From NCBI RefSeq assembly GCF_040564635.1, contig NZ_CP159837.1, positions 355,801-419,800 of the forward strand: a stretch of 64,000 bases of DNA. The letters are read 5' to 3'. A model generated the notes under the pieces. The model did no database searches, was not told the DNA's origin, and worked only from the letters and a program-made list of their open reading frames with translations. Positions 9,208 through 64,000 of this stretch are shown in pieces. Source of the stretch: Planktothricoides raciborskii GIHE-MW2. GTDB lineage: Bacteria; Cyanobacteriota; Cyanobacteriia; Cyanobacteriales; Laspinemataceae. How positions within the stretch are numbered: the first letter of the stretch is position 1; every line of letters starts with the position of its first letter. A program made the translations under genes and the position numbers.

Positions 9208-9239
9208 GGGTTCGGTGGGGTTGGGGTGTAGGGTGTGCG

Positions 9240-42700: not shown

Positions 42701-43675
42701 ATTAACCGCTTGAAAAATTTTAATTAAAGTCGCCAGTTCTTTTTCTCGACCGTAGAGCTTCTGGGGAATTTGAAATTGCTCCGCCATATCCTGTTGTCCC
42801 AGGATAAAATTTTCTATAGTTCCGGTAAAAATCAACTGATCTAAACAAGTTTGTAAATCGGCTTGAAGTCCCCGAATGCTTTGATATCTGTCTTCAGCAT
42901 TTTTCGCCAATAATTTGAAAACAATGTTAGCCAATGACTGGGGTATTGCCAATTTTGGATTTAGTGACGGGGCAATCGGCTGGGGAGTTTTGGCAATATG
43001 ACAATAAATCCATTCTAAAGGTTCACTGGCTTCAAAGGGTAGATTTCCCGTTAACATTTGATAAAATGTCACACCCAAAGAATAGAAATCTGTGCGATAA
43101 TCAATGCCCCGATTCATTCTGCCGGTTTGTTCAGGAGAAGTATAAGCGCTGATACCAGGGATATGGCGAAAATCTCTCAAATTATTTCCTTGCCCAGGGA
43201 GGTGTTCTACCGGGCTGGCCATGCTAAAATCAATCAGTTTAATGATTTTACTAATCGGGTTAATTAAAATATTTCCGGGATGAATATTTTGATGAATTAT
43301 TTGTGCTTTTTGTAAGACATCTAAACTCTGGGTTAGCTGAAGCGCCAGAGTCAAAAAATCCAGACAAGATAAGGGATGATTGACTAAAAATTTTGTCAAA
43401 GATTCCCCGCCAAAGTCTTCTAATATTAAAGCCGGGATTCCTTGATTAGTTTGGCAGAGTTCATAGATTTTGATTAATCCCGGATCGTTGAAATTTTTGC
43501 CGATCGCATACTCATGGGTAATCCGCGAAATATTTAACCAATGATTTGGCGATTCTGCCCTAGGAATTTTAATTATTACTGGCTGGCGATCGCGTTGTCG
43601 TTCTCCTCGGTAGACTAATGTGCGATCGCTCTGATGGATCGTTTCATTCATGTTGTATCCAGGGATAAAAATCAT
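36791..43675 (-). CDS. HstK-like giant hybrid signalling protein: Ser/Thr kinase - P-loop (STAND/AAA-like) NTPase - TPR-like helical region - GAF - GAF - PAS - histidine kinase (HisKA + HATPase_c)
   Basis: 2294 aa; N-terminal Hanks motifs (HQNIHPGNILIN, DFSMA); Walker A VLISGYSGIGKSAL; C-terminal H-box HEINNPVSFIYSNL and G-boxes (DNGLGI, GSGTGLGLSVS). Confidence 0.9.
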   Translation of the reverse strand: MIFIPGYNMNETIHQSDRTLVYRGERQRDRQPVIIKIPRAESPNHWLNISRITHEYAIGKNFNDPGLIKIYELCQTNQGIPALILEDFGGESLTKFLVNHPLSCLDFLTLALQLTQSLDVLQKAQIIHQNIHPGNILINPISKIIKLIDFSMASPVEHLPGQGNNLRDFRHIPGISAYTSPEQTGRMNRGIDYRTDFYSLGVTFYQMLTGNLPFEASEPLEWIYCHIAKTPQPIAPSLNPKLAIPQSLANIVFKLLAKNAEDRYQSIRGLQADLQTCLDQLIFTGTIENFILGQQDMAEQFQIPQKLYGREKELATLIKIFQAVNSASKSGHDAMKKKCPRHPQVVLISGYSGIGKSALVREIHQPIVANRGYFIGGKFDQYQRNVPYSAWLNAMQELICQVLTESEAKVQAWQEKIMHKLGQNAQVMVEVIPELELILGKQPPVKKLGVTESENQFNLLFLELISVFSQNSPLVIFLDDLQWADSASLKLLECLIFDIASATVRDRDSLSGSASRNRPLVSNSSGEDPEAIAPVDPLSVPDSDPDRDPESDRPSRLVIVGTYRDRDLSATEAWQLTLDQIQSNPQPNPQRVTEIKLRPLTINAIDELISDTLQCPPEWTQPLAELLFHKTSGNPFFLKQLLQSLYQQKLLIYNRETRRWQWDIEQIQSVEITENVGELIQKKLINLPSGTLEILKLAACLGNRFNLEFLAIAAQTSLVITLEQMQPAIQGDLIVLQGHDPYAIACLNPYLNPCLNQGKMTVISQDLETAKSLQSDIEIIKFPQLVYQFFHDRVQQAVYGLISANESSKLHLKIGQSLLQHTPPDRRYEEIFAIVNQMNLGSSSITDLSQKYELARLNLMAGQKAKIATAYEAAYQYLTMGLKLLTPESWQTHYDLTLVLHIEALQAAYLNMEFAQIEPWAEVILQNAKTTLERVKVYELKIQFYIGSNQIQPAVMNGLIALKELKIILPQFPSQFSEFWEKLLANLFIEENQITSIKKLPLMTDTYQLAAMRILLNLAPPTAQINPRLFSLVVLKMVQLSRTYGNSPFAAYGYGIYGALLCRRGLAIALGYELGQLSLNLLDKFEATELKPRVYRTFYGQINVAKCHLKESIIPLRETVQSGLENGDFEYAGYAAVDECLHRFFLGENLLFVWHKATQYLELLAPLNQNLAIAQLNLWKQLAFSLSRRECDRQTEQIFPNQEASSPLAVNHANALAKIIVAYLRNQPESAIETIERYQKIHQDADLITQIQFKFYISLLLLMQGRTLPKKEQRRLLKIVTKYQGKLKKWALSAPMNFQHKVDLVAAETARLLGDANQAIAAYDRAITGATQQGYIHEAAIANQRAGEFYQERGNQKIAEIYLRDAYDGYLNWGAIAIVKQLETKYPQLFSSSITQPIKLDSAATTDQIDPIYRIDRTSRPITPTQPPSVDFNTVIKALQSLSSEIILENLLDQIMTMLVENAGATTGCLLWELEGTWEIKARAVLNEAQTIMGESAPHRCRERSPVETREYVPLSVINYVEKTGEDLVLDDATLDERFSQDAYIQTKQPKSMICTSILHQNKMMGLLYLENHLTSSAFSSQNLTILKLLSSQAAICWENAQLYNSISLREKRLRSQSSTLLKLSQRNRQQNSLEFRKAYAPTQDIFALVNRNFQQKLTSLSQDFTPGKTHSSDRSDDLLLSVKEILEASARTLEIERVSVWIYNDQRTQIKCFDLYEQTPNRHTSGMDLSVSDYPTYFRVLSTERIIAAYDGRTDMRTAEFRDQYLIPLGITSMLEAPIRVGGQMVGVLCHEHIGAPRHWAIEEENFAASLADLLALAIERSYRAKAEQERDRFFSLSQDLLCVIDFQGQFTQLNPAWERTLAISTEQMLGKSFLEFVHPEDRPSTQTATEKLVSQQEIITFENRYRCADGSYRWLFWNATPDLERELIYAVVHDITYRVEAEAALKQANEELEIRVEARTAELQEAIASLQNANKQLQDEIIFRRTTEEALRYSRSRLKDQTQELQNALDQLQRTQIQLVQNEKMASLGQLVAGIAHEINNPVSFIYSNLDPLNHYINDLLHLLNLYRQEYPQINPIIEEGIAAVELDFLVEDIPKLLESMKSGADRIRKIVLSLRNFSRLDEAAKKRVDIHEGLESTLLILQNQLKEIQLVKNFGELPPVECYSAQINQVFMNILANAIDALQQKYLNSKEKPAQNLSSDENFPQIIIETEQIHESVRISIADNGLGIPENIQNRIFDPFFTTKPVGSGTGLGLSVSYQIVVEKHQGNLFCHSEPGKGTEFVIILPLRLPD

Positions 43676-51236: not shown

Positions 51237-52406
51237 ATGAATTACCGAGAAAATGAAATTCAAGAACCTTTTTTTGATATCGATATTTCTGAAGGAATCG
51301 ATTACTCCTCAATAGATTGTAATAATCGCCACTTTCAACAAGCCCAGCGATTCCATCAAAAACTGAGATCAGTAAATCGGTTTATTCAGTATTGTTTTAT
51401 GTATGACCCGTTAGTCAATTTAGAAACAGGAAATTCAATATCAATTTATCTAAATCCTAGGCTACTTATTGTACACAATATTTTGGAAGAAAGCAATAAA
51501 ACGTACAGTCAAATTTTTATTTTAAATAATCTCATCAAAATACCTAGTCTTAAAAAGCTAGAACAACAATATTTAGAAACCACAAAACGTGATAGCGAGG
51601 ACTATTTGCAAAAAGCTCAAATGCAAATTAACTGTTATAGCTGTATTGCACCATTCCGAATTATAAATCCAGAACAAATAACTGAAGAATACTTAAATAA
51701 ATACTCGGGTAAAAACAATCAGTCAAAGGTCACGGATAAAAAAATTGATTTGATTAATAAAAAAAGAAACGCTAAAAAATTTGAAACTAGCGAAGTATTG
51801 TATTACAAGCAATATATTTGTTGTGAACATGAAGGTGAAAAAGGATGGATTATTCTTTATAGAAGCCCACTTTTAAGTATCGATGATTTTAAATCAGAAA
51901 TAATAGGTATAGGTGAAACTCTCTTAGAGGCAGATTTAGACTTTCAAAGGAAAAAAGCCGGGTTATTTTTAGAAACTATGGAGTTAAAGCAAAATGTTTT
52001 AAATTCAAACACACCAGTTAACATAAATCAGATGAGAACTTTTTGCCAACAATACGACAAGAATATAAAATATGATAGTTTTACTCACGAATACACTGGT
52101 TGTTTCAAAAGAAAAACATTTGGGTTTAAGCTAACTTGTCGGTCTGAATTATATAAATTTACAGTTTCCGTTTCGTCTCATTCTACTAAATGGACTGTGG
52201 AAACCCACATAAATGCAAGATACAAAATACCAATAGAAGCAACAGGTAAATCCTTGGAAGAAGCTTTTAACAAAGCTAAAGAAAAGCATGACCGTATTTT
52301 ATCAAATCCGGAACTTATTCAGAAGGAAATTGCATTTATAGAGCAAGACTACCAACCAAACTATGATGAATATATAAACCTAGACCTAAGTTCCGAGTTT
52401 GAATGA
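51237..52406 (+). CDS. hypothetical protein, AT-rich (Lys/Asn/Ile-rich), no recognisable family; candidate restriction-endonuclease-like partner of the MTase remnant
   Basis: 389-aa intact ORF starting 22 bp after the MTase remnant; GC content clearly below the window average. Confidence 0.55.
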   Translation: MNYRENEIQEPFFDIDISEGIDYSSIDCNNRHFQQAQRFHQKLRSVNRFIQYCFMYDPLVNLETGNSISIYLNPRLLIVHNILEESNKTYSQIFILNNLIKIPSLKKLEQQYLETTKRDSEDYLQKAQMQINCYSCIAPFRIINPEQITEEYLNKYSGKNNQSKVTDKKIDLINKKRNAKKFETSEVLYYKQYICCEHEGEKGWIILYRSPLLSIDDFKSEIIGIGETLLEADLDFQRKKAGLFLETMELKQNVLNSNTPVNINQMRTFCQQYDKNIKYDSFTHEYTGCFKRKTFGFKLTCRSELYKFTVSVSSHSTKWTVETHINARYKIPIEATGKSLEEAFNKAKEKHDRILSNPELIQKEIAFIEQDYQPNYDEYINLDLSSEFE

Positions 52407-52530
52407 TGTATTTCACCCAGTTAAAGACATCAAAAAATTAGATTTTTTAAAAATGACCTACGAAGTCAACGAACCCATCCTCAATTCCCCTTTTGATGAA
52501 CCATCCCGGTATTGGTTTATTCGAGAGGGC

Positions 52531-52659
52531 TAAGTAGGTGAAGATAATTAATTGCACTTTTCGTTCTCCGCCGATAGGCTTTGGATTCCCGCCTTCGCGG
52601 GAATGACAGTTTTTCTTCTGATATGGTCTGTGGTGCATTTATTTCTGCCCACCTACTTA
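52531..52659. mobile_element. MITE-like element, copy 2 (inverted relative to copy 1 at 13570-13704)
   Basis: TAAGTAGGTGAAGATAATTAATTGCACTTTTCGTT...GATTCCCGCCTTCGCGGGAATGACAG...CACCTACTTA is the reverse complement of copy 1 at about 90% identity. Confidence 0.75.
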
Positions 52660-52761
52660 TCTTATTCTTTCTATGAGTTTGCCCCGACCGTCAGCCTTGG
52701 CAAGTCACGATCTAATAAATCAGTTAAAATAAACTAACTGCGATCGACTATTGTATAACTA

Positions 52762-53481
52762 ATGATTCAAGCCCCTTTTTCTGCTCAACTACTTTACCCT
52801 GATTCTGACGGGAAACCGATGGCCGATAATACAGAACAATATGAATGGATTGTGCGTTTGGTGACAAATCTGAAGCATTTATTAAAAGATGAAGTAGCGT
52901 TTGTAGCCGGAGATTTGCTGTGGTATCCCGTGGAAGTAGAGGAACCACCGGCACCCCGCCAAGCGCCAGATGCAATGGTGGCTTTGGGTCGTCCTGCGGG
53001 ATATCGCGGCAGCTATAAGCAATGGGAAGAAGACAACATTGCCCCGCAAGTAGTATTTGAGATTCTCTCACCAAGCAACACCCGTCGGGAAATGGCGGAA
53101 AAGCAAAAATTTTATGAAGACTACGGGGTTTTAGAGAGTTATTACTATGACCTCGAACGCAAAGATTTCTGGGGATTTGTGCGATCGCAGCCTGATGATA
53201 TTTGCACCTTGATTACCGCGTTGTATTTGCCTTGGACATCGCCGTTATTGCAGATTAGATTTGAACTAATGGAGGATGGGTTAGCGGTGTTTCATCCCAA
53301 TGGCGAACCTTTTGCTGAACCGGAAACCATGTTTCTGGAAAGAGATGCCGCCCGACTCGCAGAACAAGAGGCACAAGCTGAACGCGATCGGGCACTGTTG
53401 CGGGAAGAACAAACTCAAGCCAAACTCAATCAAGCCTTAGCAAAACTTCAGGAGTTGGGCATCGATCCCGATACCCTCTAG
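52762..53481 (+). CDS. Uma2-family (DUF820) putative restriction-endonuclease-like protein
   Basis: YPDSDGKPMADNTEQYEWIVRL... and PQVVFEILSPSNTRRE...FYEDYGVLESYYYDLE hallmark motifs. Confidence 0.85.
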   Translation: MIQAPFSAQLLYPDSDGKPMADNTEQYEWIVRLVTNLKHLLKDEVAFVAGDLLWYPVEVEEPPAPRQAPDAMVALGRPAGYRGSYKQWEEDNIAPQVVFEILSPSNTRREMAEKQKFYEDYGVLESYYYDLERKDFWGFVRSQPDDICTLITALYLPWTSPLLQIRFELMEDGLAVFHPNGEPFAEPETMFLERDAARLAEQEAQAERDRALLREEQTQAKLNQALAKLQELGIDPDTL

Positions 53482-53726
53482 GGAGAGGCATAATAGACAA
53501 GAGCGCAAAATAAATATTTCGATCCCCCCAACCCCCCTAAAAAAGAGGGGCTTTTTATAATGAAAGCTTTCTTGTCTAATGAGAAAAGAAACCGGGTTTC
53601 TTGGGTTGAGGATCGAGAATGACCAGTTGTAACCCATGAGAAACCCGGTTTCTGGGCTGATAAATTATAAATATTTTCCTGATATACCATCTCGAAATAC
53701 AATAAAATCAGATTCGGCCTCAACCC

Positions 53727-54470
53727 ATGCCCATGATTAACTCCCTAGAAACACAACTTTATCACCTGCAACAACTGGCAAACAACCTGGTCACGAACCA
53801 AATCACCCATTTAACTTTTGTCAGTGTTGGGGTCATTTTTCTGGCGGGTTTACTCACCAGTTTAACCCCTTGTATGCTTTCCATGTTGCCAATTACCATT
53901 GGCTATATTGGCGGTTATGAAACTAAAAATCGCCTGGAAGCAGCGGCCCAGTCTGCCTGGTTTTCCCTGGGACTCGCCACCACCCTAGCGGCTTTAGGAA
54001 TTGCCGCCGCGACGTTGGGCAAAGTCTATGGACAAGTTGGCATTGGTTTGCCAATTCTGGTTAGCGCGATCGCCATTTTAATGGGTTTAAACTTACTCGA
54101 AGCCTTACCCATTCAACTGCCATCATTTGACGGAATGCAGTGGATTTCCCAAGACTTACCGAAAGGCATTCGTTCTTACTTACTCGGTCTAACCTTTGGC
54201 TTAGTGGCTTCTCCTTGTAGTACCCCGGTTTTAGCCACATTATTAGCTTGGGTTTCCACCAGCCAAGACCTCATCTTAGGCGGGGTATTGCTATTAGCTT
54301 ATGCCGCTGGTTATGTTTCCCCATTAATTTTAGCAGGAACTTTTACCGCCAGCATCAAAAAACTCTTAGAATTAAGAAAATGGTCTAGTTGGATTACTCC
54401 AGTCAGCGGCGCATTATTAGTCGGATTTGGGGTGTTTACCCTGTTATTTAGACTCTTGCCCGTAGCTTAA
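53727..54470 (+). CDS. ccdA: cytochrome c-type biogenesis protein CcdA (DsbD-family thiol-disulfide transporter)
   Basis: 6-TM protein with LTSLTPCMLSMLPITIGYIGG and ...SPCSTPVLATLL Cys motifs. Confidence 0.9.
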   Translation: MPMINSLETQLYHLQQLANNLVTNQITHLTFVSVGVIFLAGLLTSLTPCMLSMLPITIGYIGGYETKNRLEAAAQSAWFSLGLATTLAALGIAAATLGKVYGQVGIGLPILVSAIAILMGLNLLEALPIQLPSFDGMQWISQDLPKGIRSYLLGLTFGLVASPCSTPVLATLLAWVSTSQDLILGGVLLLAYAAGYVSPLILAGTFTASIKKLLELRKWSSWITPVSGALLVGFGVFTLLFRLLPVA

Positions 54471-54485
54471 TTTGCGCCGCGCCGC

Positions 54486-54675
54486 ATCTCCAGTAGGGGC
54501 GAAGCATTCGCGGATATATCTCCCGGATAAACAGAAAAATTATCTATATACGCGAATGCTTCGCCCAATATATTTCTGCTTTTATATAATTCTGTAAGGG
54601 CGAAGCATGACCGGATAAAATTTCGGCTTTTAACCAATAATTTACCTGCGGTCATGCTTCGCCCTTACCCAAGTG
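54486..54675. repeat. three hairpin elements of the GTAGGGGCGAAGCAT(T/G)(C/A)C(G)G family
   Basis: Inverted pairs GTAGGGGCGAAGCATTCGCGG...CGCGAATGCTTCGCCC and GTAAGGGCGAAGCATGACCGG...GGTCATGCTTCGCCCTTAC. Confidence 0.75.
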
Positions 54676-54739
54676 GGATGATCCTATGTTCGCTTTTCAG
54701 TTGATTTAAGTAACACAATAAATCTGGAACACATAAACC

Positions 54740-56161
54740 ATGAACTTAAACGAATCTAAAGACTCTGTACCCTCAGAAAATCCGCCGGAAAATTCAGCAC
54801 CCAAAAATTGGACAGCTAAACAATTGCTCCGCAAAGTATTACTGATTATTGGCGATTTACGATTAGCGATTATCTTACTATTAGCGATCGCCTTTTTTAG
54901 CATCTCTGGCACCGTCATAGAACAAGGAGAATCCCTACAGTTTTATCAAGCCAACTATCCCGAAAACCCAGCCTTATTTGGCTTCCTCACCTGGAAAGTA
55001 GTTAAAACTGTTGGCCTGGATCATGTTTATAAAACCTGGTGGTTTCTCTCTATTTTAATCTTATTTGGTTCCAGCTTAACCGCTTGTACCTTTACCCATC
55101 AATTCCCTGCCCTCAAAGCAGCCCAAACCTGGAAATTTTATGAAAAACCCAGACAATATGAAAAATTAGCCCTCAGTACCCAACTCAGTGGCGGCCATCT
55201 CAACGAACTGGAACAAGTATTACAAAATCGGCGCTATCGCGTATTTCGAGAAGGCAATAAAATTTATGCCCGCAAAGGCATAATCGGCAAAATTGGCCCA
55301 ATTATTGTCCATGCCAGTATGTTGATTATTTTGGCGGGGGCAATTTGGGGCACCCTCACGGGAATTATGGCCCAACAATTAATCCCCAGTGGGGATAGTT
55401 TCAGCATTAATAATATTATCGATGCGGGGCCATTGGCGCAATTAAATGTATTTAAAGATTGGTCAGTCAAAGTCAATCGATTCTGGATTGAATACCAAGA
55501 AGATGGCAAGATTGACCAGTTTTATTCTGACTTATCTGTATTGGATAATCAACAACAAGAAGTCGATCGCCAAACTATTTATGTAAACAAGCCCTTACGC
55601 TATCGGGGCGTAACCCTTTACCAAACCGATTGGGGCATTGCCGGGATTAAAGTCCGGCTGAATAATAGCCCAGTTTTGCAATTACCAATGGGTGAATTAA
55701 AAACCGGAAGTAAGACCAGAGTTTGGGGGACTTGGATTCCCACCAAAACCGATTTAAGTGATGGAGTTTCCGTGATTGCCATTGACTTACAAGGCACGGT
55801 TTTACTCTATGGCAACGATGGCAAATTGATCGGCACTGCCCGCACCGGCAGCGCGATCGAAGTCAATGGTATCAGCCTCACCATTGTCGATTTAGTAGGC
55901 AGTACCGGCTTACAAATTAAAAGCGATCCGGGCATTCCCATTGTTTACACCGGCTTTGGTTTACTGATGCTAGGAGTAATGATGAGTTACGTCTCTCACT
56001 CCCAAATTTGGGCCTTACAAAAAGACGGCAAATGTTATATTGGCGGTCGGACAAACCGGGCTTTAGTCACCTTTGAGCGGGAAGTTTTACAAATTTTAGA
56101 ACAACTCAACCAACCCCCGTCCGAAGGCAGTTCCCTAGAAACGAGTTCCGTGGGCATTTAA
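54740..56161 (+). CDS. ccs1: cytochrome c biogenesis protein Ccs1/ResB
   Basis: 473 aa; N-terminal TM ([25 protein letters not shown]), large lumenal domain, C-terminal TM helices; follows ccdA as in other cyanobacteria. Confidence 0.9.
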
Positions 56162-56182
56162 TGCCAATTTCCTGCAACTGTA

Positions 56183-56214
56183 GGGTGGGTCAAATTTTGC
56201 CCACCTTACTAACT
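56183..56214 (+). terminator. hairpin GGTGGGTCAAATTTTGCCCACC after ccs1
   Basis: Imperfect 10-bp stem directly after the stop codon. Confidence 0.5.
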
Positions 56215-56218
56215 AATA

Positions 56219-56595
56219 CCATTTACAAAAATTCATCCAACAGTAGGGGCGCTACGGAAAAGCGCCCAAATAAACCTGGGAATTGTATAGTTTCTAAAAT
56301 TAGTAAAATAGTCGATTTCAACCGCCTGTAGGGGTCAACGGCCGTTGACCCCTACAGGCGGGGATTTTAATCCCCGCCGGATTTTAATCCCCGCAATCGT
56401 CGGTTAATTGCGGGGGTACATAAACCGCCGGGGGTTAAAACCCCCGGCTAATAGCGCAAGTCGGTTAAAACCGACTTTGGATTATTTTGAAATTGGTAAT
56501 TTTATTTACAAAAATTCATACAACAGTAGGGGAGCAATGCTTGCGCCCAAATAAACCAGGGAATTGTAGCAGTAGTTTCTAAAATTGGTATAACC
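56219..56595. repeat. two about 90-bp direct repeats (56219-56312, 56497-56595) bracketing a 185-bp array of six hairpins with TTAA/TTTAA/TTAAAA loops (includes a perfect 38-bp palindrome at 56322-56359)
   Basis: Direct repeats about 85% identical (ATTTACAAAAATTCATmCAACAGTAGGGG...GCGCCCAAATAAACC.GGGAATTGTA...AGTTTCTAAAATT); hairpins CGCCTGTAGGGGTCAACGGCCGTTGACCCCTACAGGCG, GGGGATTTTAATCCCC (x2), CCCCGCAAT..ATTGCGGGG, CCGGGGGTTAAAACCCCCGG, AAGTCGGTTAAAACCGACTT. Confidence 0.75.
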
Positions 56596-56640
56596 ACTCC
56601 CCGCAACCATGCCCCGAATGAAATAACCAAAATTGTCAAA

Positions 56641-58710
56641 CTAAAGCCATCCTCTAATCTCACTTTCGGTCAGGGTGCGCTCAATTTTTATATATTCACT
56701 TTTCGTCGCTTCTAAAATATGTTTCATCATCACAGGTTCCCCGGCTTCAGCGGCTAAAAATGCCGCATTTATGGCAATATTGCGGATATTTCCTCCGGCT
56801 ACATTCAGTTTGGCTAACTTCTTAAACGCTAATCCTTCCGTTGGGGTTTTTTCGGGGAAAATGCGCTGCCAAATTTCTCCCCGTTGATTGATATCTGGGA
56901 AAGGAAATTGCACCACAAATCTAATCCGGCGCAAAAATGCTTGGTCAATGGAATTTTTTAAGTTAGTGGTGAGAATGGCTAAACCCCGATAGGCTTCCAT
57001 GCGCTGCAAGAGATAGCCCACTTCAATATTGGCATAGCGATCGTGACTATCTTTAACATCAGACCTTTTGCCAAATAAAGCATCAGCTTCATCAAATAAT
57101 AATATCGCGCCGCCCCCTTCAGCAGCATCAAAAACCCGCCGCAAGTTTTTCTCGGTTTCGCCAATATATTTACTGACAATTGAACTTAAATCAATTCGAT
57201 AAAGGTCGAGTTGTAATTGTTTGGCTAAAATTTCCGCTGCCATTGTTTTTCCCGTGCCACTAGACCCGGCAAATAAGGCACTAATGCCTAAGCCTCGGCC
57301 ACTTTTGTCCCCAAAACCCCATTGTTCATAAACTTTTACTCGTTGTTTGACTTGGGCGTAGCATTCTTGCAAAACTTGTTTCTCTTTTTCCGGCAAAATT
57401 AAGTCATCCCAAGTGGCGTTTGTGTCGATGCGTTGGGCTAATTCATCCATTTTTAATCGGGCTTGAAGGCGACAAGTTTGCCACAGTTGATGATGAATTT
57501 TTTCCTGAAGTTCTGTAGTTTCTGTAGGTTCAGTTTGGGCAAAATTTTCGGGTTGACTTGTTTGATATATGTTTTGATTGATTTGATGATTTTCTAGTTT
57601 TTGATTGATGATTCCTTTGGCTTGCAAACAAGCAGAATTAATCGCCGAAGGACTGAGGTTAAAATGGGCGACTAAAGATTCAATATGGCCATTGAGTTGA
57701 GTGGCCATATCACCCAAGGCATTTTGCCAAACTATGCGTTGTTCGCGGGCTGTGGGATGAGTGACTTCTAGGGTAATTAGGGGGCGTTGCCGTTGGGTGC
57801 GCCGATCGCGACTACTGACTATTAAAGGACATTTAATCGTATCAATAAAACGGGCTACGGTTGCCTCTCTCCATGCTTCATTACTTTCTAAGTGGTCGCA
57901 GTCGAGAAATATGGCACTTTTATTTAAAATATATTCGCGATCGCACAAACTTTTCAGTAAATTTTGTTGGGTTTGATCCGCTGGTAAAGCATCTGCTGAC
58001 ATCACCAATAAATTTAGGCCAAGGTCTGCACAAGCTTTAGCCGCGATCGCCTGTTTACTAGCCGGTTCCATCCCACATAATTGTAACACTGGAAAGCGGC
58101 CAAATTCGGCATAACTTTGCCCCCAACTAGCGACAATTTCTTGCGCCAACTCTTGATGAGACGAAACCAACAGTAGGGGCGAAATGCCGTTCTCCCCTAC
58201 CTCAACATAAAACTCTGGACTTAAAGGTTCAACAATGCCATGCAAGCGTTCATCTAAATAATTAACCCCCACCAAATAATGTAAAATTCGCTCATCAATT
58301 CGCAGGGGACTCGTGGCCAAAGTTCTGGCCACACCCACTTCAATTAATCGCCATTTTCGCAGGGGATTTATCGGACTCAGAGCATCCCAATGTCCCCCCG
58401 GAAATATGGCCAAAGCTAAACTAAAAGTCGGATAAATTTTTTGCTCATTATGTTGGGCTTGGGCACAAAGTCCGGCAAATTGAGCATCAAATTCTACCGC
58501 CGCACATAATACTAATAAATCCCTTTCAAAAGGGGAAAGTTGGAAAGATTTACAGACCGTTTCTAACGCCGTCGGTTGGCTGAACTGGCTAGGAGGCAAA
58601 GTCGGCAATTTAACTTGACCAGGATTCTGGTTAATCATTAGTTCTAATGCCTCTTGCACCCGCGCGATCGCACCCATCAAATACTTTTGATTTTCTTCTT
58701 GCCAGTTCAT
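56641..58710 (-). CDS. AAA+ ATPase of contractile-injection-system type (Afp15/Pvc15-like)
   Basis: C-terminal AAA module (GLGISALFAGSSGTGKTMAAEILA...ILLFDEADALFGKR...LLQRMEAYRGLAILTTN) preceded by a 450-aa N-terminal region; last gene of the tail-like cluster. Confidence 0.75.
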   Translation of the reverse strand: MNWQEENQKYLMGAIARVQEALELMINQNPGQVKLPTLPPSQFSQPTALETVCKSFQLSPFERDLLVLCAAVEFDAQFAGLCAQAQHNEQKIYPTFSLALAIFPGGHWDALSPINPLRKWRLIEVGVARTLATSPLRIDERILHYLVGVNYLDERLHGIVEPLSPEFYVEVGENGISPLLLVSSHQELAQEIVASWGQSYAEFGRFPVLQLCGMEPASKQAIAAKACADLGLNLLVMSADALPADQTQQNLLKSLCDREYILNKSAIFLDCDHLESNEAWREATVARFIDTIKCPLIVSSRDRRTQRQRPLITLEVTHPTAREQRIVWQNALGDMATQLNGHIESLVAHFNLSPSAINSACLQAKGIINQKLENHQINQNIYQTSQPENFAQTEPTETTELQEKIHHQLWQTCRLQARLKMDELAQRIDTNATWDDLILPEKEKQVLQECYAQVKQRVKVYEQWGFGDKSGRGLGISALFAGSSGTGKTMAAEILAKQLQLDLYRIDLSSIVSKYIGETEKNLRRVFDAAEGGGAILLFDEADALFGKRSDVKDSHDRYANIEVGYLLQRMEAYRGLAILTTNLKNSIDQAFLRRIRFVVQFPFPDINQRGEIWQRIFPEKTPTEGLAFKKLAKLNVAGGNIRNIAINAAFLAAEAGEPVMMKHILEATKSEYIKIERTLTESEIRGWL

Positions 58711-58871
58711 AATAATTCCCGATTATTCCCGATTATTCCCGGTACTATCTTACAGCGGTTTTAAGATTAATTAACCATAAATTTTCTTAGGGGCAATCCG
58801 ATGGCGGTGGTTGCCCCTACACTACCGGAATGCTTCGCCCCTACAATGCCGGAATGCTTCGCCCCTAAAGT

Positions 58872-59090
58872 CTAAGTTGATTTCAGCAAATCCTCTAAAT
58901 ACTTTTCCGCCTCTTCTGGAGTCAGCAGCAGTTCTTGATCTTTTCTCAGAATTTCATACTTTCCGCCCCGATAACCATGCCCAATAATCAGCTTCGCTTT
59001 AACTGCCTCATTCCCCAACTTATGCAACCGATTATAACTCAGGGTTTCCATCTCTCTTTCTAATTGTTGTCTCAATTCTTCTTCATTCAT
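58872..59090 (-). CDS. small hypothetical protein (72 aa) between the cap and ATPase genes
   Basis: ORF with a charged N-terminal helix and GHGYRGGKYEILRK segment; no recognisable family. Confidence 0.35.
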   Translation of the reverse strand: MNEEELRQQLEREMETLSYNRLHKLGNEAVKAKLIIGHGYRGGKYEILRKDQELLLTPEEAEKYLEDLLKST

Positions 59091-59201
59091 CGCTTTAATT
59101 CCTTACTTTTGTTATTGGTTATTTGTTGTTAGTTATTAGTTATTTGTTAGGCAAATTTAAGTCAACTAACCACTAACAAATAACCAATAACATATAACAA
59201 T

Positions 59202-60542
59202 TTAGCGGACTAAAATCCTCGGCTCTTTATACCATTGAAATGTCTTACTATTCGGGTCTGTATCCACAGTCAGAAGACTTTCCGCCCCATCAATTTGCAA
59301 CCGCACCAAATATTCCCCTGGTTTAACATTTTCCACCGGAATTGCGATCGTATTTTGATTGGTGCGCCGGACTGGGGCATCAAACAAATAAGCATTGGGA
59401 TTTTCGATGGATTTCTCATTTAAAATTAGCACCACCCGCTGCTTTTTGCCCACAGTCAAATTCACCCGCACTTTGATTTGGGCCGATCGCGTTGGTTCTT
59501 CCCGACCCTGCAAATTAGAAACCGTAGCTTTCAGAACTGTGGGACGCAAAACAAACGGCGCGGCATTCGACTCCAAAGACTGATACGATTTATTGTCTGG
59601 GGAATGATACAAATTTGTCGCCGCTTGTTCACCCTCGGTCGCTGCCGCACCATAGACCGGAATTACATTTAGACGTTGTGTAATCCGATGAATCACCTGT
59701 AAACTTTGCACCCCAGGCATCAAGACATCATCGGGTACTGAACTCAAGGGTAAAATAATCTGATTTTCCGTCACCTCCTGGGGGGTGAGTTCCAATTCCC
59801 CAATGCGGACTAGGGTAGTGGAAGCTTTCAGATTTCTCCCTTGAATTAATAAGGTACTATCTTTAAGAATGGGTTCCCCCGGCCCGACTCGAGAAATCAC
59901 CCGATCCACTATCGGGGAATAACCAAACGGCACCGCTGCCAGCCCGCGAAGACGCACCGGCAAAGCTTTTTTGCTGACTTGTTCCCCTTCCAAAATCACC
60001 ACGCTGGCTTTATAAGCTAAGGATAAAGCGTAGGGAGTTTGGAAAAATACCGACCAAATTTTTGATAAATCTTCCAAAGATAAATTCAGCGGCGTGAAGA
60101 TAATTTGCTCCACCTGTTGATCTAAGTCAGAACTGGCTAAATAAGGAAAAGTTTCATCGGCAATGGTTTCTAGGATAGAGTCTTTATCCAAAATCGCGCG
60201 ATCGTTCAACGCCCGAATCACACTCCCCATGATCCGTTGCGGTTCCAGATCCATATCATTGCCGTAGAAACTAATCAGATAATTCAAATCCCAAGCGGTG
60301 CGGTTTTGCTTACTATCTCTGCTGGTCTGCGATCGCGATCGCGCATCTGCATTCTTTTGCCAAATTGGATTTGGCGTCGTTTGATACAAATACAGATTCA
60401 CACCGCGTTCGGGGGTCGCACTGCCTGCATTCGCTGGTCGAGCCATTGTCACCCTGGTGCCATCGATGTCAATTTGAATCGCCTCCTGCAAAACTCGCTG
60501 CAAAGCGGCGGTGACAGTCGGAATGGCTAAATAATTACTCAT
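59202..60542 (-). CDS. DUF4255-family protein (Afp16/Pvc16-like tail terminator/cap of contractile injection systems)
   Basis: N-terminus MSNYLAIPTVTAALQRVLQEAI... and overall beta-rich 446-aa pattern match the DUF4255 family found in eCIS loci. Confidence 0.7.
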   Translation of the reverse strand: MSNYLAIPTVTAALQRVLQEAIQIDIDGTRVTMARPANAGSATPERGVNLYLYQTTPNPIWQKNADARSRSQTSRDSKQNRTAWDLNYLISFYGNDMDLEPQRIMGSVIRALNDRAILDKDSILETIADETFPYLASSDLDQQVEQIIFTPLNLSLEDLSKIWSVFFQTPYALSLAYKASVVILEGEQVSKKALPVRLRGLAAVPFGYSPIVDRVISRVGPGEPILKDSTLLIQGRNLKASTTLVRIGELELTPQEVTENQIILPLSSVPDDVLMPGVQSLQVIHRITQRLNVIPVYGAAATEGEQAATNLYHSPDNKSYQSLESNAAPFVLRPTVLKATVSNLQGREEPTRSAQIKVRVNLTVGKKQRVVLILNEKSIENPNAYLFDAPVRRTNQNTIAIPVENVKPGEYLVRLQIDGAESLLTVDTDPNSKTFQWYKEPRILVR

Positions 60543-60595
60543 AATTATCTACGGATATCGGCGGATACTTTTCATCTAATTCTAAGGGTAAATTA

Positions 60596-61051
60596 TCATT
60601 TATGCAGTTGGGAAATCAACTGCACCCAGCGCGATCGCTCGGAATGTTCCAAACTTAAAATATCATCTAAAGACCAATGAAAATAAAAAGCAATCAAAGC
60701 TACCTCTTGGTATAATTGCTCCAAGGGGTAGCCGAAAACTTTCCCACCCGACACCACATCCAAAGGCTGGTGAATCTGAGCAAAAAAGTCCCGCAAATAG
60801 AGGAGATCGATTAAAAAAAGCTGTTCCAACATTTCGGGAGTCACCACCGATAAATGCCCGAAATCATCAATTAACCGGGACAACATCACCAACATCGCAT
60901 AAGCTGGATTTTGCCTAACTTGGGGATGCTTTTGCACATAAATTTCATCCTCACCCGTAGCGAGTCGCATCATCCCGACTTGATGAATACTTCCCTCTGC
61001 ATCCAAAAATCCCTTGGGCAGGGTAAACTCAAATATTGTCGAATTCCTCAT
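60596..61051 (-). CDS. hypothetical protein, paralog A of a tandem pair (151 aa)
   Basis: Shares FEFTLPKG(F/Y)LD.EG..H..G.MRLA...EI......P.V..NPAYA..(L/V).(M/I)LSR.I...G.L..V.P.M.E.LF..DL.YL..F..QI with the neighbouring gene. Confidence 0.55.
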   Translation of the reverse strand: MRNSTIFEFTLPKGFLDAEGSIHQVGMMRLATGEDEIYVQKHPQVRQNPAYAMLVMLSRLIDDFGHLSVVTPEMLEQLFLIDLLYLRDFFAQIHQPLDVVSGGKVFGYPLEQLYQEVALIAFYFHWSLDDILSLEHSERSRWVQLISQLHK

Positions 61052-61120
61052 ACCAAAACATATATAATACTTAACTATAATACTTAACTATAATACTTGA
61101 CTATAATGCTTAACTGAATC

Positions 61121-61495
61121 TTACTGAAATTCCGTCATCATCCTGCCCATTTCTGGATTTTCTTCAGGGGGGGAAGCGGGGGAAATAAACTCTGGGTCTG
61201 GGGGTTCCAACTCATTAATCTGGCGATAAAACTTTTGTAAATAATTCAAATCAACCGCAAACAGATTTTCCATCATCATCGGACTGACTGACTCCAATGC
61301 CCCCAGACGGGTAATCACCCGCGATAAAATCAGAATCGTCGCATAAGCGGGATTAGATTTCACTCGCGGATCCCGCAAAGGAACAATCTCATCGATCGCC
61401 CTTGCCAAACGCATCACCCCTTTGCGGTGGAGGTTGCCCTCTTCATCCAAATATCCCTTGGGCAAAGTAAACTCAAACTCCGTTTGAATCATCAT
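61121..61495 (-). CDS. hypothetical protein, paralog B of a tandem pair (124 aa)
   Basis: About 45% identical to paralog A; no recognisable family. Confidence 0.55.
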   Translation of the reverse strand: MMIQTEFEFTLPKGYLDEEGNLHRKGVMRLARAIDEIVPLRDPRVKSNPAYATILILSRVITRLGALESVSPMMMENLFAVDLNYLQKFYRQINELEPPDPEFISPASPPEENPEMGRMMTEFQ

Positions 61496-61516
61496 AAGAT
61501 CGCCAATATATATTTT

Positions 61517-61999
61517 TTATAATTTTACTCTTTTTAGCTCTTCCACTGCCACTTCCATTTCTTCAATTTCAAACTCTCCAGAAGTGACAGCCAGGTCAGA
61601 AATCGTATAACTGACTGGCCAAGCATTTTTAAATTCTAATCTAAACTGCGCTTGAGCCCCTTGGTCATAAATCACTAAAGACCCATCCTTTCTTTTCTCC
61701 CCCCACTTCCCTTCTTGTACGGCTTGTAACCAATTCCATAGGGTCATCGAACAAGTCAGCCCTCGACGCAATATTAGATTATTATATTTCACATTGCCAG
61801 GGATTTTTGTAGTCACCACTAAGCCTTTTTTAGATTTGCCCCACTTTTGCGGCGTCACCTCAGTGGCTTCGATAATATCCTGAGTCACTTTAAAGCCGCT
61901 ACATTCCATAAAATAGCCATCCACTGACTCATCGCTGCCATCAAGTTTCAGTTCTAAAAAAAAGCGACATTTGGCTAAAACTTCGGGAAATTTGCCCAC
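61517..61999 (-). CDS. phage T4 gp19-family tail tube protein (CIS tube paralog 3)
   Basis: ...VDGYFMECSGFKVTQDIIE...KIPGNVKYNNLILRRG...LWNWLQ...KDGSLVIYDQ...NAWPVSYTISDLAVTSGEFEIEEMEVAVEEL follows the PF06841-type tube pattern. Confidence 0.8.
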   Translation of the reverse strand: MGKFPEVLAKCRFFLELKLDGSDESVDGYFMECSGFKVTQDIIEATEVTPQKWGKSKKGLVVTTKIPGNVKYNNLILRRGLTCSMTLWNWLQAVQEGKWGEKRKDGSLVIYDQGAQAQFRLEFKNAWPVSYTISDLAVTSGEFEIEEMEVAVEELKRVKL

Positions 62000-62171
62000 G
62001 GTTATATCCTTATTTTGCTCTAATTTAATTTGCTTAAATTTGCTTAAATTTCCTTTAATTTTCTTTAATTTTTTTTAATTTTATTAAATCTTCTTAAATA
62101 TCGATCTCCCGTAGGGACACGGCAATGCCGTGTCCCTAAAAATAAAAGGTAATTTATATCAGAAACAATCA

Positions 62172-62657
62172 CTATTTCTTACGCATCAAATATTCATAAG
62201 CAAAGGTGACGGTTTCTGTCAGGGATTGGTTGCCTGCTGCATCAAAGTCTGACATGGCATAAGTCATAGGCATCACCCCTTTAAATTCCCACTGGGCTGA
62301 CTCGGTGCCATCTTGTTTAAAAACTGTAATGGTTGCAACTTGATTTTTTCCTTTGGTTTTGGTTGCCCCACCCACATCAGGGGTCGAATGGGAATCATAA
62401 AACCAATCAGAAACGGCTTTGGGGTTTTTACTAGAGGTAATAAATTTGATCGTGATATCGTGGGATTCTACGGCGGAAGGAGCGGCTTGTCGGTTAACTT
62501 TACTCCCCTTAGTCACCCCCAATGGCCCATCAGATTGAGTCACCGGAATGGTCAATTTCAAGCCAGAAACAGATTCGACTAAGAGACCCTCATCGAGATT
62601 ATCTGCTTTAAATTGAAACCTAGCCTGGGATAGCGGTTCGCCTACGGTATCTGGCAT
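62172..62657 (-). CDS. tail tube protein (CIS tube paralog 2, Afp1/Afp5-like)
   Basis: 161 aa with the tube-family pattern (F.FK.D......ESVSGL.L.I......ITIKFITSSKN...SDWFYDS....NQVATITVFKQDGTESAQWEFKGVMPMTYAMSDFDA...ETVTFAYEYL). Confidence 0.75.
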   Translation of the reverse strand: MPDTVGEPLSQARFQFKADNLDEGLLVESVSGLKLTIPVTQSDGPLGVTKGSKVNRQAAPSAVESHDITIKFITSSKNPKAVSDWFYDSHSTPDVGGATKTKGKNQVATITVFKQDGTESAQWEFKGVMPMTYAMSDFDAAGNQSLTETVTFAYEYLMRKK

Positions 62658-62736
62658 TGTATTTCTCCTAATATTGAGTGTATGCGGCGTTATTGAATCA
62701 TGTTACTGAGCGCCAATTCCGATCTATCTTGTTTTT

Positions 62737-63210
62737 TTAACTTTGTTTGCGCTCAACGCTTTCTACATTCAGGGTGAATGTTTCCGTTAAAAAGTCTTGA
62801 CCGCCAACATTAAATTCAGAAACTTCATAACCTACCATCTGACATTGTTTCAGGTTGTAGGTGATGACTAATTTAGCGTCGGCATCAAAGATTTCTATGG
62901 AACCATCGGTAAAACATTGACTCCATTTGCCATCGCCGCCATAAGTGGCTGGCATCCCTTTTTTGAAGAGGTCAAATAGTTTTTTATTCTTATCTTCAAT
63001 AACGGCGGTAATGGTGACATCTTGGTTGTTGTAGTACCCAGTTGAAGTGGTGTTTCTGGTCATCTGGGCTTTGGCTGTAGAGGCGATCGGCTTACCGTGA
63101 CCAGCGGTTTTGGCTTGAATATTAATGCCGCTAACTTTCAAGAGTGGATACTCGGTGCCACCATATTTAAATGAAAACCTGTTAGAAGAAATAGTAAGCA
63201 GGTCTGCCAT
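62737..63210 (-). CDS. tail tube protein (CIS tube paralog 1)
   Basis: 157 aa; ...YPLLKVSGINIQAK...VTITAVIEDKN..LFDLFKK...GSIEIFDADAKLVITYNLKQCQMVGYEVSEFNVGGQDFLTETFTLNVESVE tube-family pattern. Confidence 0.75.
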   Translation of the reverse strand: MADLLTISSNRFSFKYGGTEYPLLKVSGINIQAKTAGHGKPIASTAKAQMTRNTTSTGYYNNQDVTITAVIEDKNKKLFDLFKKGMPATYGGDGKWSQCFTDGSIEIFDADAKLVITYNLKQCQMVGYEVSEFNVGGQDFLTETFTLNVESVERKQS

Positions 63211-63305
63211 TTTTTTCCTCCTTGTAAGTCAAGGTGTATTGTTGATAGGTGTCGTGTAGCCGCTTTGGCTACTTAACTTGGTCTGCTTAAAAAGATTAGC
63301 GTAGG

Positions 63306-63456
63306 TTGGGTTGAACCAAAGTGAAACCCAACATTTGTCAGGTGGCAATTTTCAGTAATGCCTAACATCTGTTATTTCGGTTGGGTTTCGTGCCTCAACC
63401 CAACCTACTACCTTTCCTCTTTAAAAGTTGGGTTTCGTGCCTCAACCCAACCTACA
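63306..63456. repeat. three hairpins sharing the stem GTTGGGTT/AACCCAAC in the sheath-tube intergenic region
   Basis: GTTGGGTTGAACCAAAGTGAAACCCAAC (63306-63333) and two direct copies of GTTGGGTTTCGTGCCTCAACCCAACCTAC (63379-63408, 63427-63456). Confidence 0.7.
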
Positions 63457-63517
63457 ATTTTCCATGTGTCATTCCAGCAAACAAACGATGCGGGGATGAC
63501 ATTTACCAGATCATCAA

Positions 63518-64000
63518 TTATTGGCCATATTGGCCAGGAGCCCACTGACTGATGCGGAAGATGACAAATTCCGCTGGACGCACAGGGGCGACACCCACTT
63601 CGATATAGAGGCGTCCTTTCATCATGGTGTCTGGGGTATTGAGATCCCCGTCGCACTTGACATAGAAGGATTCACTGACGTTGCTGCCCACTAAAGCCCC
63701 TTCACGCCATAGCCCAGTTAAGAAGCTGGAAACGGTCTGACTGACTCGACCCCAGAGGGCTTCGTCGTTGGGTTCAAAGACTACCCATTGAGTGCCAATT
63801 TCAATGGATTTTTCGATGTAGCTCATTAAGCGGCGAACGGGAATATAGCGCCATTGGATGTTGTCCGGTTCAACGAGGGTGCGAGCGCCCCAAATTTTAA
63901 TGCCCCGGTTGAAGTTGGCAAAGTTGCGGATGCAGTTGATGCCGAGGGGGTTGAGGAGTTCTTGTTCCCGGAAGTTGGTTTCGTAGGCTAGACCAATGAC
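63518..64000 (-). CDS. contractile tail sheath protein, C-terminal part (gene continues beyond the window end)
   Basis: Frame stays open upstream of the listed Met to position 64000 (...GINCIRNFANFNRGIKIWGARTLVEPDNIQWRYIPVRRLMSYIEKSIEIGTQWVVFEPNDEALWGRVSQTVSSFLTGLWREGALVGSNVSESFYVKCD...GRLYIEVGVAPVRPAEFVIFRISQW), the canonical sheath C-terminal domain. Confidence 0.85.
   Translation of the reverse strand, partial: VIGLAYETNFREQELLNPLGINCIRNFANFNRGIKIWGARTLVEPDNIQWRYIPVRRLMSYIEKSIEIGTQWVVFEPNDEALWGRVSQTVSSFLTGLWREGALVGSNVSESFYVKCDGDLNTPDTMMKGRLYIEVGVAPVRPAEFVIFRISQWAPGQYGQ

Follow-up and report, generated by a model that had tools for sequence, protein, structure and literature searches.

The 64,000-nucleotide stretch of Planktothricoides raciborskii DNA analysed here (the window) carries nine open reading frames on the minus strand between positions 56641 and 64000, all found where and in the order in which a preliminary description of the sequence had placed them. 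Pfam assigned the C-terminus of a contractile sheath, three gp19-type tube proteins, a DUF4255 (Pvc16_N) protein and an AAA+ ATPase, so that the profile search proposed in that description as a check on the sheath, tube and DUF4255 ORFs gave families for all of them. This part of the window represents most of one operon-like block, the first genes of which lie beyond 64000, where the sequence was read from a contig (L001) that is 99.7% identical over 12 kb without gaps. The order of the complete block is short DUF4255 cap, sheath, three tubes, two chaperones, long DUF4255 cap, a 72-aa protein and the AAA+ ATPase. Three isolates and several metagenomes carry all ten ORFs in intact form, and comparison with a relative that has the same gene order gives dN/dS values of 0.07-0.18 for all ten genes (dS 0.8-1.2), a substitution pattern indicating that every gene of the block is under purifying selection.

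The window contains the C-terminal 160 residues of the Cis2-like sheath (63518..64000, minus strand; Phage_sheath_1C, Pfam E 3e-15), whose translation is open to the window edge. The full gene codes for 572 aa and extends about 1.2 kb further, and the full-length ortholog at L001 6764-8482 has both Phage_sheath_1 and Phage_sheath_1C domains. The top PDB matches of the sheath are sheaths of contractile injection systems (CIS), the best being that of the Streptomyces cytoplasmic CIS (8BKY/8BL4), which aligns over the full length with an E-value of 7e-108 (query residues 4-568 on residues 3-528 of 8bky_A), whereas the C-terminal domain alone aligns with the sheath of the Anabaena thylakoid-anchored CIS (E 4e-49). 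The nearest solved relative is therefore the Streptomyces system and not the Anabaena system mentioned in the initial description. Beyond 64000, the contig contains the rest of the sheath gene, a gene for a short DUF4255 (Pvc16_N) protein of 177 aa, a divergent histidine kinase/GerE response regulator pair and unrelated genes. The original gene list was thus right about the sheath, but the block does not start with it, as the short DUF4255 protein precedes it outside the window.

Three tube paralogs follow, which are 23-31% identical to each other and all match PF06841: paralog 1 (157 aa, 62737..63210, minus strand, E 2e-9), paralog 2 (161 aa, 62172..62657, minus strand, E 2e-15) and paralog 3 (160 aa, GTG start, 61517..61999, minus strand, E 7e-28). 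The assignment of the third protein to the gp19 family, made in the earlier description, holds, but the other two match this family as well. Paralog 1 is 73-79% identical to its orthologs in the related loci L007 and L010, has a dN/dS of 0.10-0.18 and a TIGR02241 score under the cut-off, and a PDB sequence search with it gave no match. Paralog 2 matches PHROG 4542 'tail tube protein' (E 6e-9; dN/dS 0.11-0.15). Judged by sequence similarity, paralog 3 comes closest to the characterised CIS tube proteins; it reaches 83 bits with TIGR02241 (cut-off 62.4), and its PDB matches include AlgoCIS 7adz, Pvc1, Streptomyces 8bl4_v, Anabaena All3324 (E 1e-3) and 9r9h_B, which is labelled just 'Phage tail protein', while it stays far under the NCBIfam CIS5_fam and CIS1_fam cut-offs. 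The roles proposed for the three tube paralogs, as well as those of the ATPase and the 72-aa protein, follow from gene position and from distant analogues.

The two proteins encoded downstream of the tubes had been described as paralogous and unknown. They are indeed true paralogs (53% identity over 91 residues), but both are predicted tail-assembly chaperones. Chaperone 1 (124 aa, 61121..61495, minus strand) consists of the chaperone N-domain and a short low-complexity tail, and chaperone 2 (151 aa, 60596..61051, minus strand) is a long form, in which the N-domain (approximately residues 1-95) is fused in frame to a DUF6760 C-domain (residues 110-149, E 9e-11). Both match PHROG 508 'tail assembly chaperone', with E-values of 1.7e-4 for chaperone 1 and 1.3e-3 for chaperone 2, and chaperone 2 also has a weak Phage_P2_GpE match in Pfam under the cut-off (E 0.008). 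The top PDB fold match (Foldseek) of the AF2 model of chaperone 2 is the HK97 tail assembly chaperone 2ob9, a weak match with an E-value of 0.12 and a probability of 0.87. Within the cluster, chaperone 1 shows the highest conservation, being 85-94% identical to its counterparts in L009 and L010 and 68-96% identical across 80 cyanobacterial genomes. Of 62 related loci, 54 have the DUF6760 domain in the -1 frame downstream of the second chaperone gene, where a G-run or GGGAAAG shortly precedes the stop codon, and one relative has the lambda-type heptamer G_GGA_AAG, which suggests from sequence that -1 frameshifting may occur in these relatives. An in-frame fusion was found among the related loci in Planktothricoides and Ancylothrix only. 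The position after the tubes, the PHROG 508 matches, the -1 frame extension in relatives and the HK97 fold match together lead us to predict that the two proteins, one of them with DUF6760, are a pair of tail-assembly chaperones whose -1 frame extension is conserved. As in the phage chaperones of lambda (G/GT), P2 (E/E+E') and HK97 (2OB9), the genes lie directly after the tubes, there are two products with a common N-domain, and in most relatives of the locus the longer product would likewise arise through a -1 frame extension. Here, in contrast, the long form is hard-wired by the in-frame fusion, a separate paralogous gene supplies the short form and no tape-measure gene follows. In phages, such chaperones act on a tape measure whose anchor is the baseplate hub, and the T part of lambda gpGT recruits tube subunits. 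No mention of DUF6760 was found in the full-text literature searched.

The long DUF4255 protein (446 aa, 59202..60542, minus strand; Pvc16_N, E 3e-42) is Cis16-like and has a weak TIG match in Pfam. Sequence and profile searches of the PDB with it gave no match. Its AF2 model (mean pLDDT 75) has an N-domain with the cap fold, matching Anabaena Cis16A (7b5i_AA), Alg16A (7adz_0A; target-normalised TM-score 0.63) and PVC caps, followed by two C-terminal Ig/FN3-like beta-sandwich domains that match tandem FN3/Ig domains. The 72-aa protein (58872..59090, minus strand) has no Pfam, PHROG or NCBIfam match; however, it is a conserved ORF with 55-79% identical orthologs at the same position in L007, L009 and L010 (dN/dS 0.10-0.15), and in relatives, where its family has 18 members in the locus survey, it always lies between the long cap and the ATPase. 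The ATPase (689 aa, 56641..58710, minus strand), Afp15/Cis15-like by position, combines a long N-terminal region containing a winged-helix variant domain (PF22977, E 4e-18) with one C-terminal AAA module (PF00004, E 2e-25) and resembles Cdc48/p97-type AAA proteins in the PDB; its linkage to the long cap recurs in 36 of the loci surveyed. The convergent spacer between the ATPase gene and ccs1 (56162..56640) marks the end of the cluster. It contains stacked perfect palindromes, confirming the hairpin array seen earlier, at 56322-56361 (20-nt arms, 100% complementary), 56357-56378, 56427-56448 and 56458-56477, as well as a duplicated segment of about 75 nt (56214-56287 and 56497-56568). A 20-mer of the palindrome occurs nowhere else in the 64-kb window, and the palindromes likely act as bidirectional terminators.

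Neither Pfam nor tblastn searches of the window and its 10-kb flanks revealed baseplate wedge (gp25, gp6/Baseplate_J, gp7/Tail_P2_I) or spike (VgrG, PAAR) genes, and spike, wedge, tape-measure and effector genes are absent from about 57 kb of sequence to one side of the block and about 6 kb to the other. This agrees with the earlier observation that no baseplate genes lie between tubes and cap. Their suggested position upstream beyond 64000, on the other hand, is contradicted by the near-identical contig, which has only the sheath remainder, short cap, kinase/regulator and unrelated genes there. Searching by tblastn with a 1219-aa tape-measure candidate from a relative gave no match, which is a weak test as such proteins diverge fast. 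Effector proteins used as tblastn queries likewise found nothing in the whole window and flanks, extending the previous finding that no effector follows the ATPase, and homologs of CHASE2 or DUF928 proteins were not found in the same region. Next to the locus lie ccs1, ccdA, genes of a two-component system, DUF4330 and further housekeeping genes.

A genome scan returned at least 563 related stretches, of which the best 80 are all cyanobacterial, and 84 loci were surveyed. The sheath-tubes-chaperones core is invariant across the survey, and a sheath followed by three tubes is found in 67 of 74 loci. The gene order is indeed unlike that of Afp/PVC, as had been proposed, but it is neither an oddity nor a local rearrangement, since sheath plus three tubes is the norm in a lineage that is very widespread in cyanobacteria. 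The unusual part is the cap-72aa-ATPase block, which is located upstream and divergent in 48 loci, together with the kinase/regulator pair, and downstream, as here, in 4-5. Spike or wedge genes follow the chaperones in 24 of the 69 assessable loci and adjacent baseplate genes are absent in the other 45; in this lineage, the shaft/assembly module is thus usually found apart from the modules for spike and wedge. In Coleofasciculus chthonoplastes GCA_040222015.1, for instance, contig L051 has the same order as the locus described here, and a different contig (L092) codes for CIS_tube, VgrG, DUF4280, gp25, a 741-aa protein, Tail_P2_I, a DUF4159-like protein and a WD40 protein. In Amazonocrinis, a urease operon sits between PAAR and gp25. 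On these sequence relationships, the block belongs to a cyanobacteria-wide lineage whose modules are often unlinked.

Among known systems, the Streptomyces CIS (CIS-Sc, PDB 8BKY/8BL4), labelled dbeCIS subclade IId and reported to have no typical tape measure (Casu 2023), has the nearest solved sheath and also shares several tube paralogs after the sheath (cis1a, cis1b), a DUF4255 cap, an AAA+ ATPase and a multicellular filamentous host. Its cluster, however, is contiguous (sco4242-4260) and includes baseplate and spike genes, with two tube homologs as compared to three here, whereas our locus has two DUF4255 proteins and a chaperone pair and lacks a linked baseplate. The Anabaena PCC 7120 CIS (all3313-all3327; PDB 7B5H/7B5I), which is anchored through the Cis19 crown, the Cis12 extension and the Cis13 transmembrane helix (Weiss 2022), features of baseplate and fibre genes that are absent from our locus, shares the cyanobacterial host, the cap fold of Cis16A and a two-protein cap (Cis16A of 192 aa and Cis16B of 399 aa versus 177 and 446 aa here). 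It belongs to another lineage, as seen from the similarity confined to the C-terminal domain of the sheath (All3325) and the weakly matching tube (All3324; E 1e-3), and its contiguous cluster has no ATPase. Algoriphagus AlgoCIS (clade Ib, PDB 7ADZ) resembles our system in its tube, in the cap N-domain fold and in having a second cap-associated protein with an Ig-like domain, but Alg16B lacks the DUF4255 N-domain of the long protein, and its contiguous 18-gene cluster contains DUF4157 cargo genes. With the Afp/PVC extracellular CIS, the locus shares the sheath, gp19-type tube, DUF4255 cap and AAA+ ATPase families. Afp/PVC differ by a single operon in which tube, sheath and baseplate genes precede those of the ATPase and the cap and effector genes form the 3' end, and by one cap protein and no annotated chaperone pair; in addition, the tube proteins described here are far under the NCBIfam CIS1 and CIS5 cut-offs.

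Taking these observations together, we propose, with a probability of roughly 0.78, that the block codes for one half of a contractile injection system of P. raciborskii, the half responsible for shaft, assembly and termination. By analogy with its relatives, and given the purifying selection on the block, we infer that the baseplate, spike and tape-measure genes of Planktothricoides would be encoded at another locus. The divergent histidine kinase and GerE response regulator just past the window would turn the block on; as a conserved pair, they are likely the switch of the system. The two chaperones would then hold the tape-measure protein encoded elsewhere, while the DUF6760 domain probably recruits tube subunits in a manner comparable to the T part of lambda gpGT. 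Tube and sheath would polymerise on a baseplate/spike complex supplied from the other locus and be capped by the two DUF4255 proteins, much like the Anabaena and Algoriphagus systems, whose caps also consist of two proteins. The ATPase, possibly with the 72-aa protein, might aid assembly or cargo loading, similar to Afp15/Pvc15. The local gene order could be explained by a move of the cap-72aa-ATPase block from its usual upstream divergent place to a position downstream of the chaperones. Since the sheath is most similar to that of the Streptomyces CIS, a cell-internal, stress-triggered role (lysis or cell death) and a released particle are equally plausible.

One might argue that Planktothricoides has lost the baseplate/spike half and that the remaining genes are a decaying, non-functional remnant, as baseplate genes are absent from the window and flanks, no Planktothricoides was seen among the 120 listed of 2866 VgrG profile matches or in the ten clusters examined, and the sole Planktothricoides genome in the census of Geller et al. 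(2021) was scored as eCIS-negative. That census defines a system as one cluster with at least 10 linked core genes, a rule that the locus cannot meet and to which the negative score is due. The ten intact ORFs speak against decay, and dN/dS values of 0.07-0.18 at a dS of about 1 are not expected of pseudogenes, making a remnant improbable.

The selected, self-contained block, the 45 of 69 related loci without adjacent baseplate genes and the lack of Planktothricoides among the VgrG matches listed would also fit a machine in which sheath, tubes, caps, chaperones and ATPase need no canonical baseplate or spike. Planktothricoides, and perhaps many cyanobacteria with the unlinked block, would then have no baseplate/spike genes at all, and the selected set, with its three tubes and two caps, would form a contractile or tubular structure that serves some purpose other than injection. 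We consider this somewhat less probable still, since spike and wedge modules are present, either nearby or at another locus, in both genomes checked (C. chthonoplastes and Amazonocrinis), the absence of Planktothricoides from the VgrG matches is explained by a listing of 120 out of 2866, and chaperones of this type act on a tape measure anchored in the baseplate hub. That the block is a piece of a prophage tail or R-type tailocin is hardly credible. Sheath, gp19-type tubes and -1 frameshift tail-assembly chaperones are phage-tail features, but two DUF4255 caps and a dedicated AAA+ ATPase are CIS hallmarks that phage tails and pyocins lack (Weiss 2022, Table S1). Among solved structures, CIS sheaths are the nearest to the sheath of the block, which itself lies in the chromosome and shows synteny and vertical conservation throughout cyanobacteria, and capsid, portal, terminase and integrase genes are absent from the window and flanks. 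An R-type pyocin or prophage tail was also rejected as a comparison on account of the two DUF4255 proteins, the ATPase and the lack of head or lysis genes; the initial reading of the locus as a CIS module rather than a prophage tail is therefore upheld.

If the block is one half of an injection system with unlinked modules, the split arrangement, which is common in this cyanobacterial lineage, is missed by cluster-based surveys, and genomes with such modules, including that of the bloom-forming Planktothricoides, are scored as lacking the system. As shaft and spike/wedge modules are unlinked, the prevalence of CIS in cyanobacteria is probably underestimated, and housekeeping operons may even separate injection-system modules in this lineage. 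In addition, DUF6760 and its partner protein gain a putative function as a tail-assembly chaperone pair, and the likely kinase/regulator switch makes a dispersed injection-system regulon open to testing.

The minus-strand cluster at 56641-64000 is a contractile injection system (CIS) module, and all nine ORFs listed for it in the preliminary description were recovered by an ORF check and Pfam annotation. They code for the C-terminal domain of a sheath (63518-64000), whose frame is still open at the window edge, three tube paralogs of the gp19 family at 62737-63210 (E 2e-9), 62172-62657 (E 2e-15) and 61517-61999 (E 7e-28), a 124-aa protein, a 151-aa protein with a C-terminal DUF6760 domain (60596-61051), a 446-aa protein with a Pvc16_N/DUF4255 domain and a weak TIG domain (59202-60542, E 3e-42; the long cap), a 72-aa protein, and a 689-aa ATPase with a winged-helix variant and one AAA module (56641-58710). 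The sequence beyond the window is provided by a contig of Planktothricoides FACHB-1370 (L001), which matches 52000-64000 with 99.7% identity and no gaps. On this contig, the full sheath has 572 aa and a second, short DUF4255 protein of 177 aa is encoded ahead of it. For all ten genes, dN/dS lies between 0.07 and 0.18 against a relative with the same gene order (dS 0.8-1.2), and between 0.10 and 0.34 against a relative with 96% identity. Selection on all ten genes indirectly supports the idea that the locus is functional.

The sheath of the Streptomyces cytoplasmic CIS (8BKY/8BL4, subclade IId) aligns with that of the window over its full length (E 7e-108), whereas the sheaths of Anabaena (All3325), PVC, Afp and AlgoCIS align with the C-terminal domain only (E 1e-42 to 4e-49). 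Since the Anabaena CIS cluster is also contiguous and lacks an ATPase (Weiss 2022), the locus, though a CIS, appears to lie outside the thylakoid-anchored Anabaena type. Its gene order is likewise unlike that of Afp/PVC, as had been claimed before. Tube 3 shows weak matches to several CIS tubes, tubes 1 and 2 have no sequence match in the PDB, and all three score far under the NCBIfam cut-offs for CIS1 and CIS5. One could read the three tubes as Cis1 together with the Cis5 and Cis7 initiators, but we dropped this reading because the spike module of complete relatives adds a distinct Cis5-like tube and a CIS_tube protein to their three tubes.

With 53% identity across 91 residues, the 124-aa and 151-aa proteins are genuine paralogs. 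They had been described as unknown, but are probably tail-assembly chaperones, judging by PHROG 508, their position and the predicted recoding in relatives. Both match PHROG 508, 'tail assembly chaperone' (E 1.7e-4 and 1.3e-3), and the longer one also has a weak match to Phage_P2_GpE. The top PDB fold match of its AlphaFold2 model (pLDDT 81) is the HK97 tail assembly chaperone 2OB9, a match that is weak when taken alone (E 0.12, probability 0.87). In a metagenomic relative (L010, about 8040-8210), the second chaperone gene ends after 104 codons with EGKF and a stop, and DUF6760 resumes in the -1 frame immediately 3' of G_GGA_AAG, the slippery heptamer of lambda G/GT. Of 62 surveyed cyanobacterial CIS loci (L010 and L012-L089), 54 encode DUF6760 in the -1 frame after the second chaperone gene, where it is preceded by a GGGGGA(A/G) run that is conserved 1-3 codons before the stop. 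To judge from these sequences, this looks like a conserved programmed -1 frameshift in CIS chaperone genes. The window gene at 60596-61051 is a fused version of chaperone and DUF6760, and such in-frame fusions were seen among the surveyed loci only in two Planktothricoides-type genomes and Ancylothrix. Position, paralogy, predicted recoding and weak homologies all point to tail-assembly chaperones. A full-text literature search found no mention of DUF6760.

Strains FACHB-1370 and SR001 have the identical long cap, and the window's ATPase and Ccs1 do not differ from those of strain GIHE-MW2, which assigns the window to Planktothricoides raciborskii. As sequence and profile searches against the PDB returned no relative of the long cap, it is tied to solved caps by its predicted fold alone. 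Its AlphaFold2 model (pLDDT 75) has an N-domain that resembles Anabaena Cis16A, Alg16A and the PVC caps, followed by two confident beta-sandwich domains similar to tandem FN3/Ig modules. Anabaena and Algoriphagus have two-protein caps, which the predicted pair of 446-aa and 177-aa DUF4255 proteins would resemble. The 72-aa ORF is conserved, under purifying selection and always flanked by the long cap and the ATPase. In SR001 (L003, 13153-13336), collinearity with the window is lost over roughly 130-180 bp at 58711-58871, within the intergenic stretch that separates the ATPase from the 72-aa gene; this break represents an insertion or a divergent stretch and may be a small mobile repeat. Genes for class I SAM methyltransferases recur at the junctions of the block formed by long cap, 72-aa protein and ATPase. 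Oscillatoria/Laspinema have three of them in tandem (L007 6180-9530; in L015-L017 they lie upstream of the response regulator), and L010 has a single one (8410-9210), flanked by the chaperones and the cap.

The spacer between the convergent ATPase and ccs1 genes (56162-56640) contains four strong palindromes and a duplicated segment of about 75 nt (56214-56287 and 56497-56568; copies 283 nt apart, 87-96% identity), whose copies flank a perfect 40-nt palindrome (56322-56361). A miniature repeat element or a stack of terminators could account for duplicate and palindrome. Terminator-like sites are in modest excess (14 versus 8.8 expected) and cluster in this spacer, promoter-like sites are not enriched (19 versus 16.2 expected), and an Rfam search of 52000-64000 gave no match. 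Elsewhere in the window, a 389-aa ORF without Pfam match (51237-52406, plus strand) lies in an AT-rich stretch (GC 0.29-0.37) and may be a foreign insertion, and a 2294-aa signalling protein with kinase, AAA_16, GAF, PAS and histidine-kinase domains is encoded at 36791-43675 on the minus strand.

A homolog search with the 151-aa protein returned only 18 matches, owing to the word index. A pattern-based genome scan with the chaperone alignment was far more sensitive and yielded at least 563 matching stretches, of which the best 80 are all cyanobacterial, from Gloeobacterales to Nostocales, with 68-96% identity to the 124-aa protein. For 84 loci, ORFs were grouped into clusters and representatives annotated with Pfam. 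The part that never varies is (short cap)-sheath-tubes-chaperone(s); three tubes are present in 67 of 74 loci. The long cap is upstream and divergent in 48 loci, mostly with a kinase/regulator pair and the ATPase, and downstream and co-directional in only four; a fifth, sheath-less locus shares the latter junction. What follows the chaperones could be assessed in 69 loci: unrelated genes in 27, a spike module (Cis5-like tube, tape-measure candidate of 1000-2200 aa, CIS_tube, VgrG and PAAR) in 20, only CHASE2/DUF928 sensor genes in 13, the cap block, as in the window, in five, and a wedge module (gp25, Baseplate_J and Tail_P2_I) in four. An adjacent baseplate is missing as well from the closest relatives, Laspinema and Oscillatoria acuminata (sheath 78% identical); O. 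acuminata carries DUF4157 effector-type genes after the ATPase, whereas the window has none there.

CHASE2 sensor proteins, in some cases joined to an adenylate/guanylate cyclase, recur together with DUF928 proteins beside CIS modules, downstream of the chaperones in L013-L019, L031, L039, L043 and others, and also in L008 (1-1933). In the Laspinema clade they are joined by an Apyc1-like metallo-beta-lactamase and a cNMP-binding MscS channel. A tie between cyclic-nucleotide signalling and CIS is suggested.

The baseplate genes had been expected upstream, beyond 64000, or elsewhere, but are not in the adjoining sequence. L001 shows the remainder of the sheath, the short cap, a divergently oriented histidine kinase and GerE-type response regulator and, further out, DUF4330, small ORFs and a 653-aa protein without CIS features; the remaining large ORFs of the window have housekeeping or signalling functions. 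We searched the window and three Planktothricoides-type contigs by tblastn with VgrG, gp25, Cis11, Tail_P2_I, CIS_tube, Cis5-like tube, tape-measure candidate, PAAR, DUF4157, CHASE2 and DUF928 sequences from relatives, and the sole match was that of the Cis5-like tube to tube 3 (24% identity). The earlier statement that no cargo gene is linked holds. A single inversion of the usual order is ruled out, as the baseplate would then adjoin the response regulator, where unrelated genes are found instead. An 882-aa WD40 protein in the window (6559-9207, plus strand) is a Ser/Thr kinase-WD40 fusion and, repeats aside, unrelated to the WD40 proteins that end relatives' baseplate modules. In Ancylothrix sp. 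C2 (L009 11085-20462), the genes that come after the chaperones were first considered as the missing baseplate and then rejected, as they form a different, small-sheath Mu/P2-like tail module (359-aa sheath, Phage_tube_2-like, DNA_circ_N, 1188-aa coiled-coil protein and GPD-like hub); this genome thus has two kinds of tail machinery in tandem, the second of which adjoins the CIS chaperones.

Searching with a VgrG profile produced 2866 matches; none of the 120 listed, nor any member of ten clusters examined, could be attributed to Planktothricoides, a result that does not argue for absence of the baseplate genes from its genome. Two relatives' genomes were checked for a separate baseplate. In Coleofasciculus chthonoplastes GCA_040222015.1, contig 85 (L051) has the Planktothricoides-type order and contig 173 (L092) encodes CIS_tube, VgrG, DUF4280, gp25, a 741-aa wedge protein, Tail_P2_I, a DUF4159-like and a WD40 protein. 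In Amazonocrinis nigriterrae CENA67, spike and wedge modules adjoin the shaft module, with a complete urease operon (ureA, ureB, ureG, ureD, ureF, ureC) between PAAR and gp25 (L093 12057-18704). The published census counts one Planktothricoides genome and no eCIS (Geller et al., 2021); it requires at least ten linked core genes per eCIS and therefore misses this locus, which has seven recognisable ones.

Taken together, the preliminary description misjudged what is unusual here: the succession of sheath, three tubes and chaperones is the norm of a large cyanobacterial lineage. Peculiar to this locus are the relocated block of cap, 72-aa protein and ATPase, the long chaperone form fused in frame, and the absence of all spike, wedge, tape-measure and effector genes from its surroundings.
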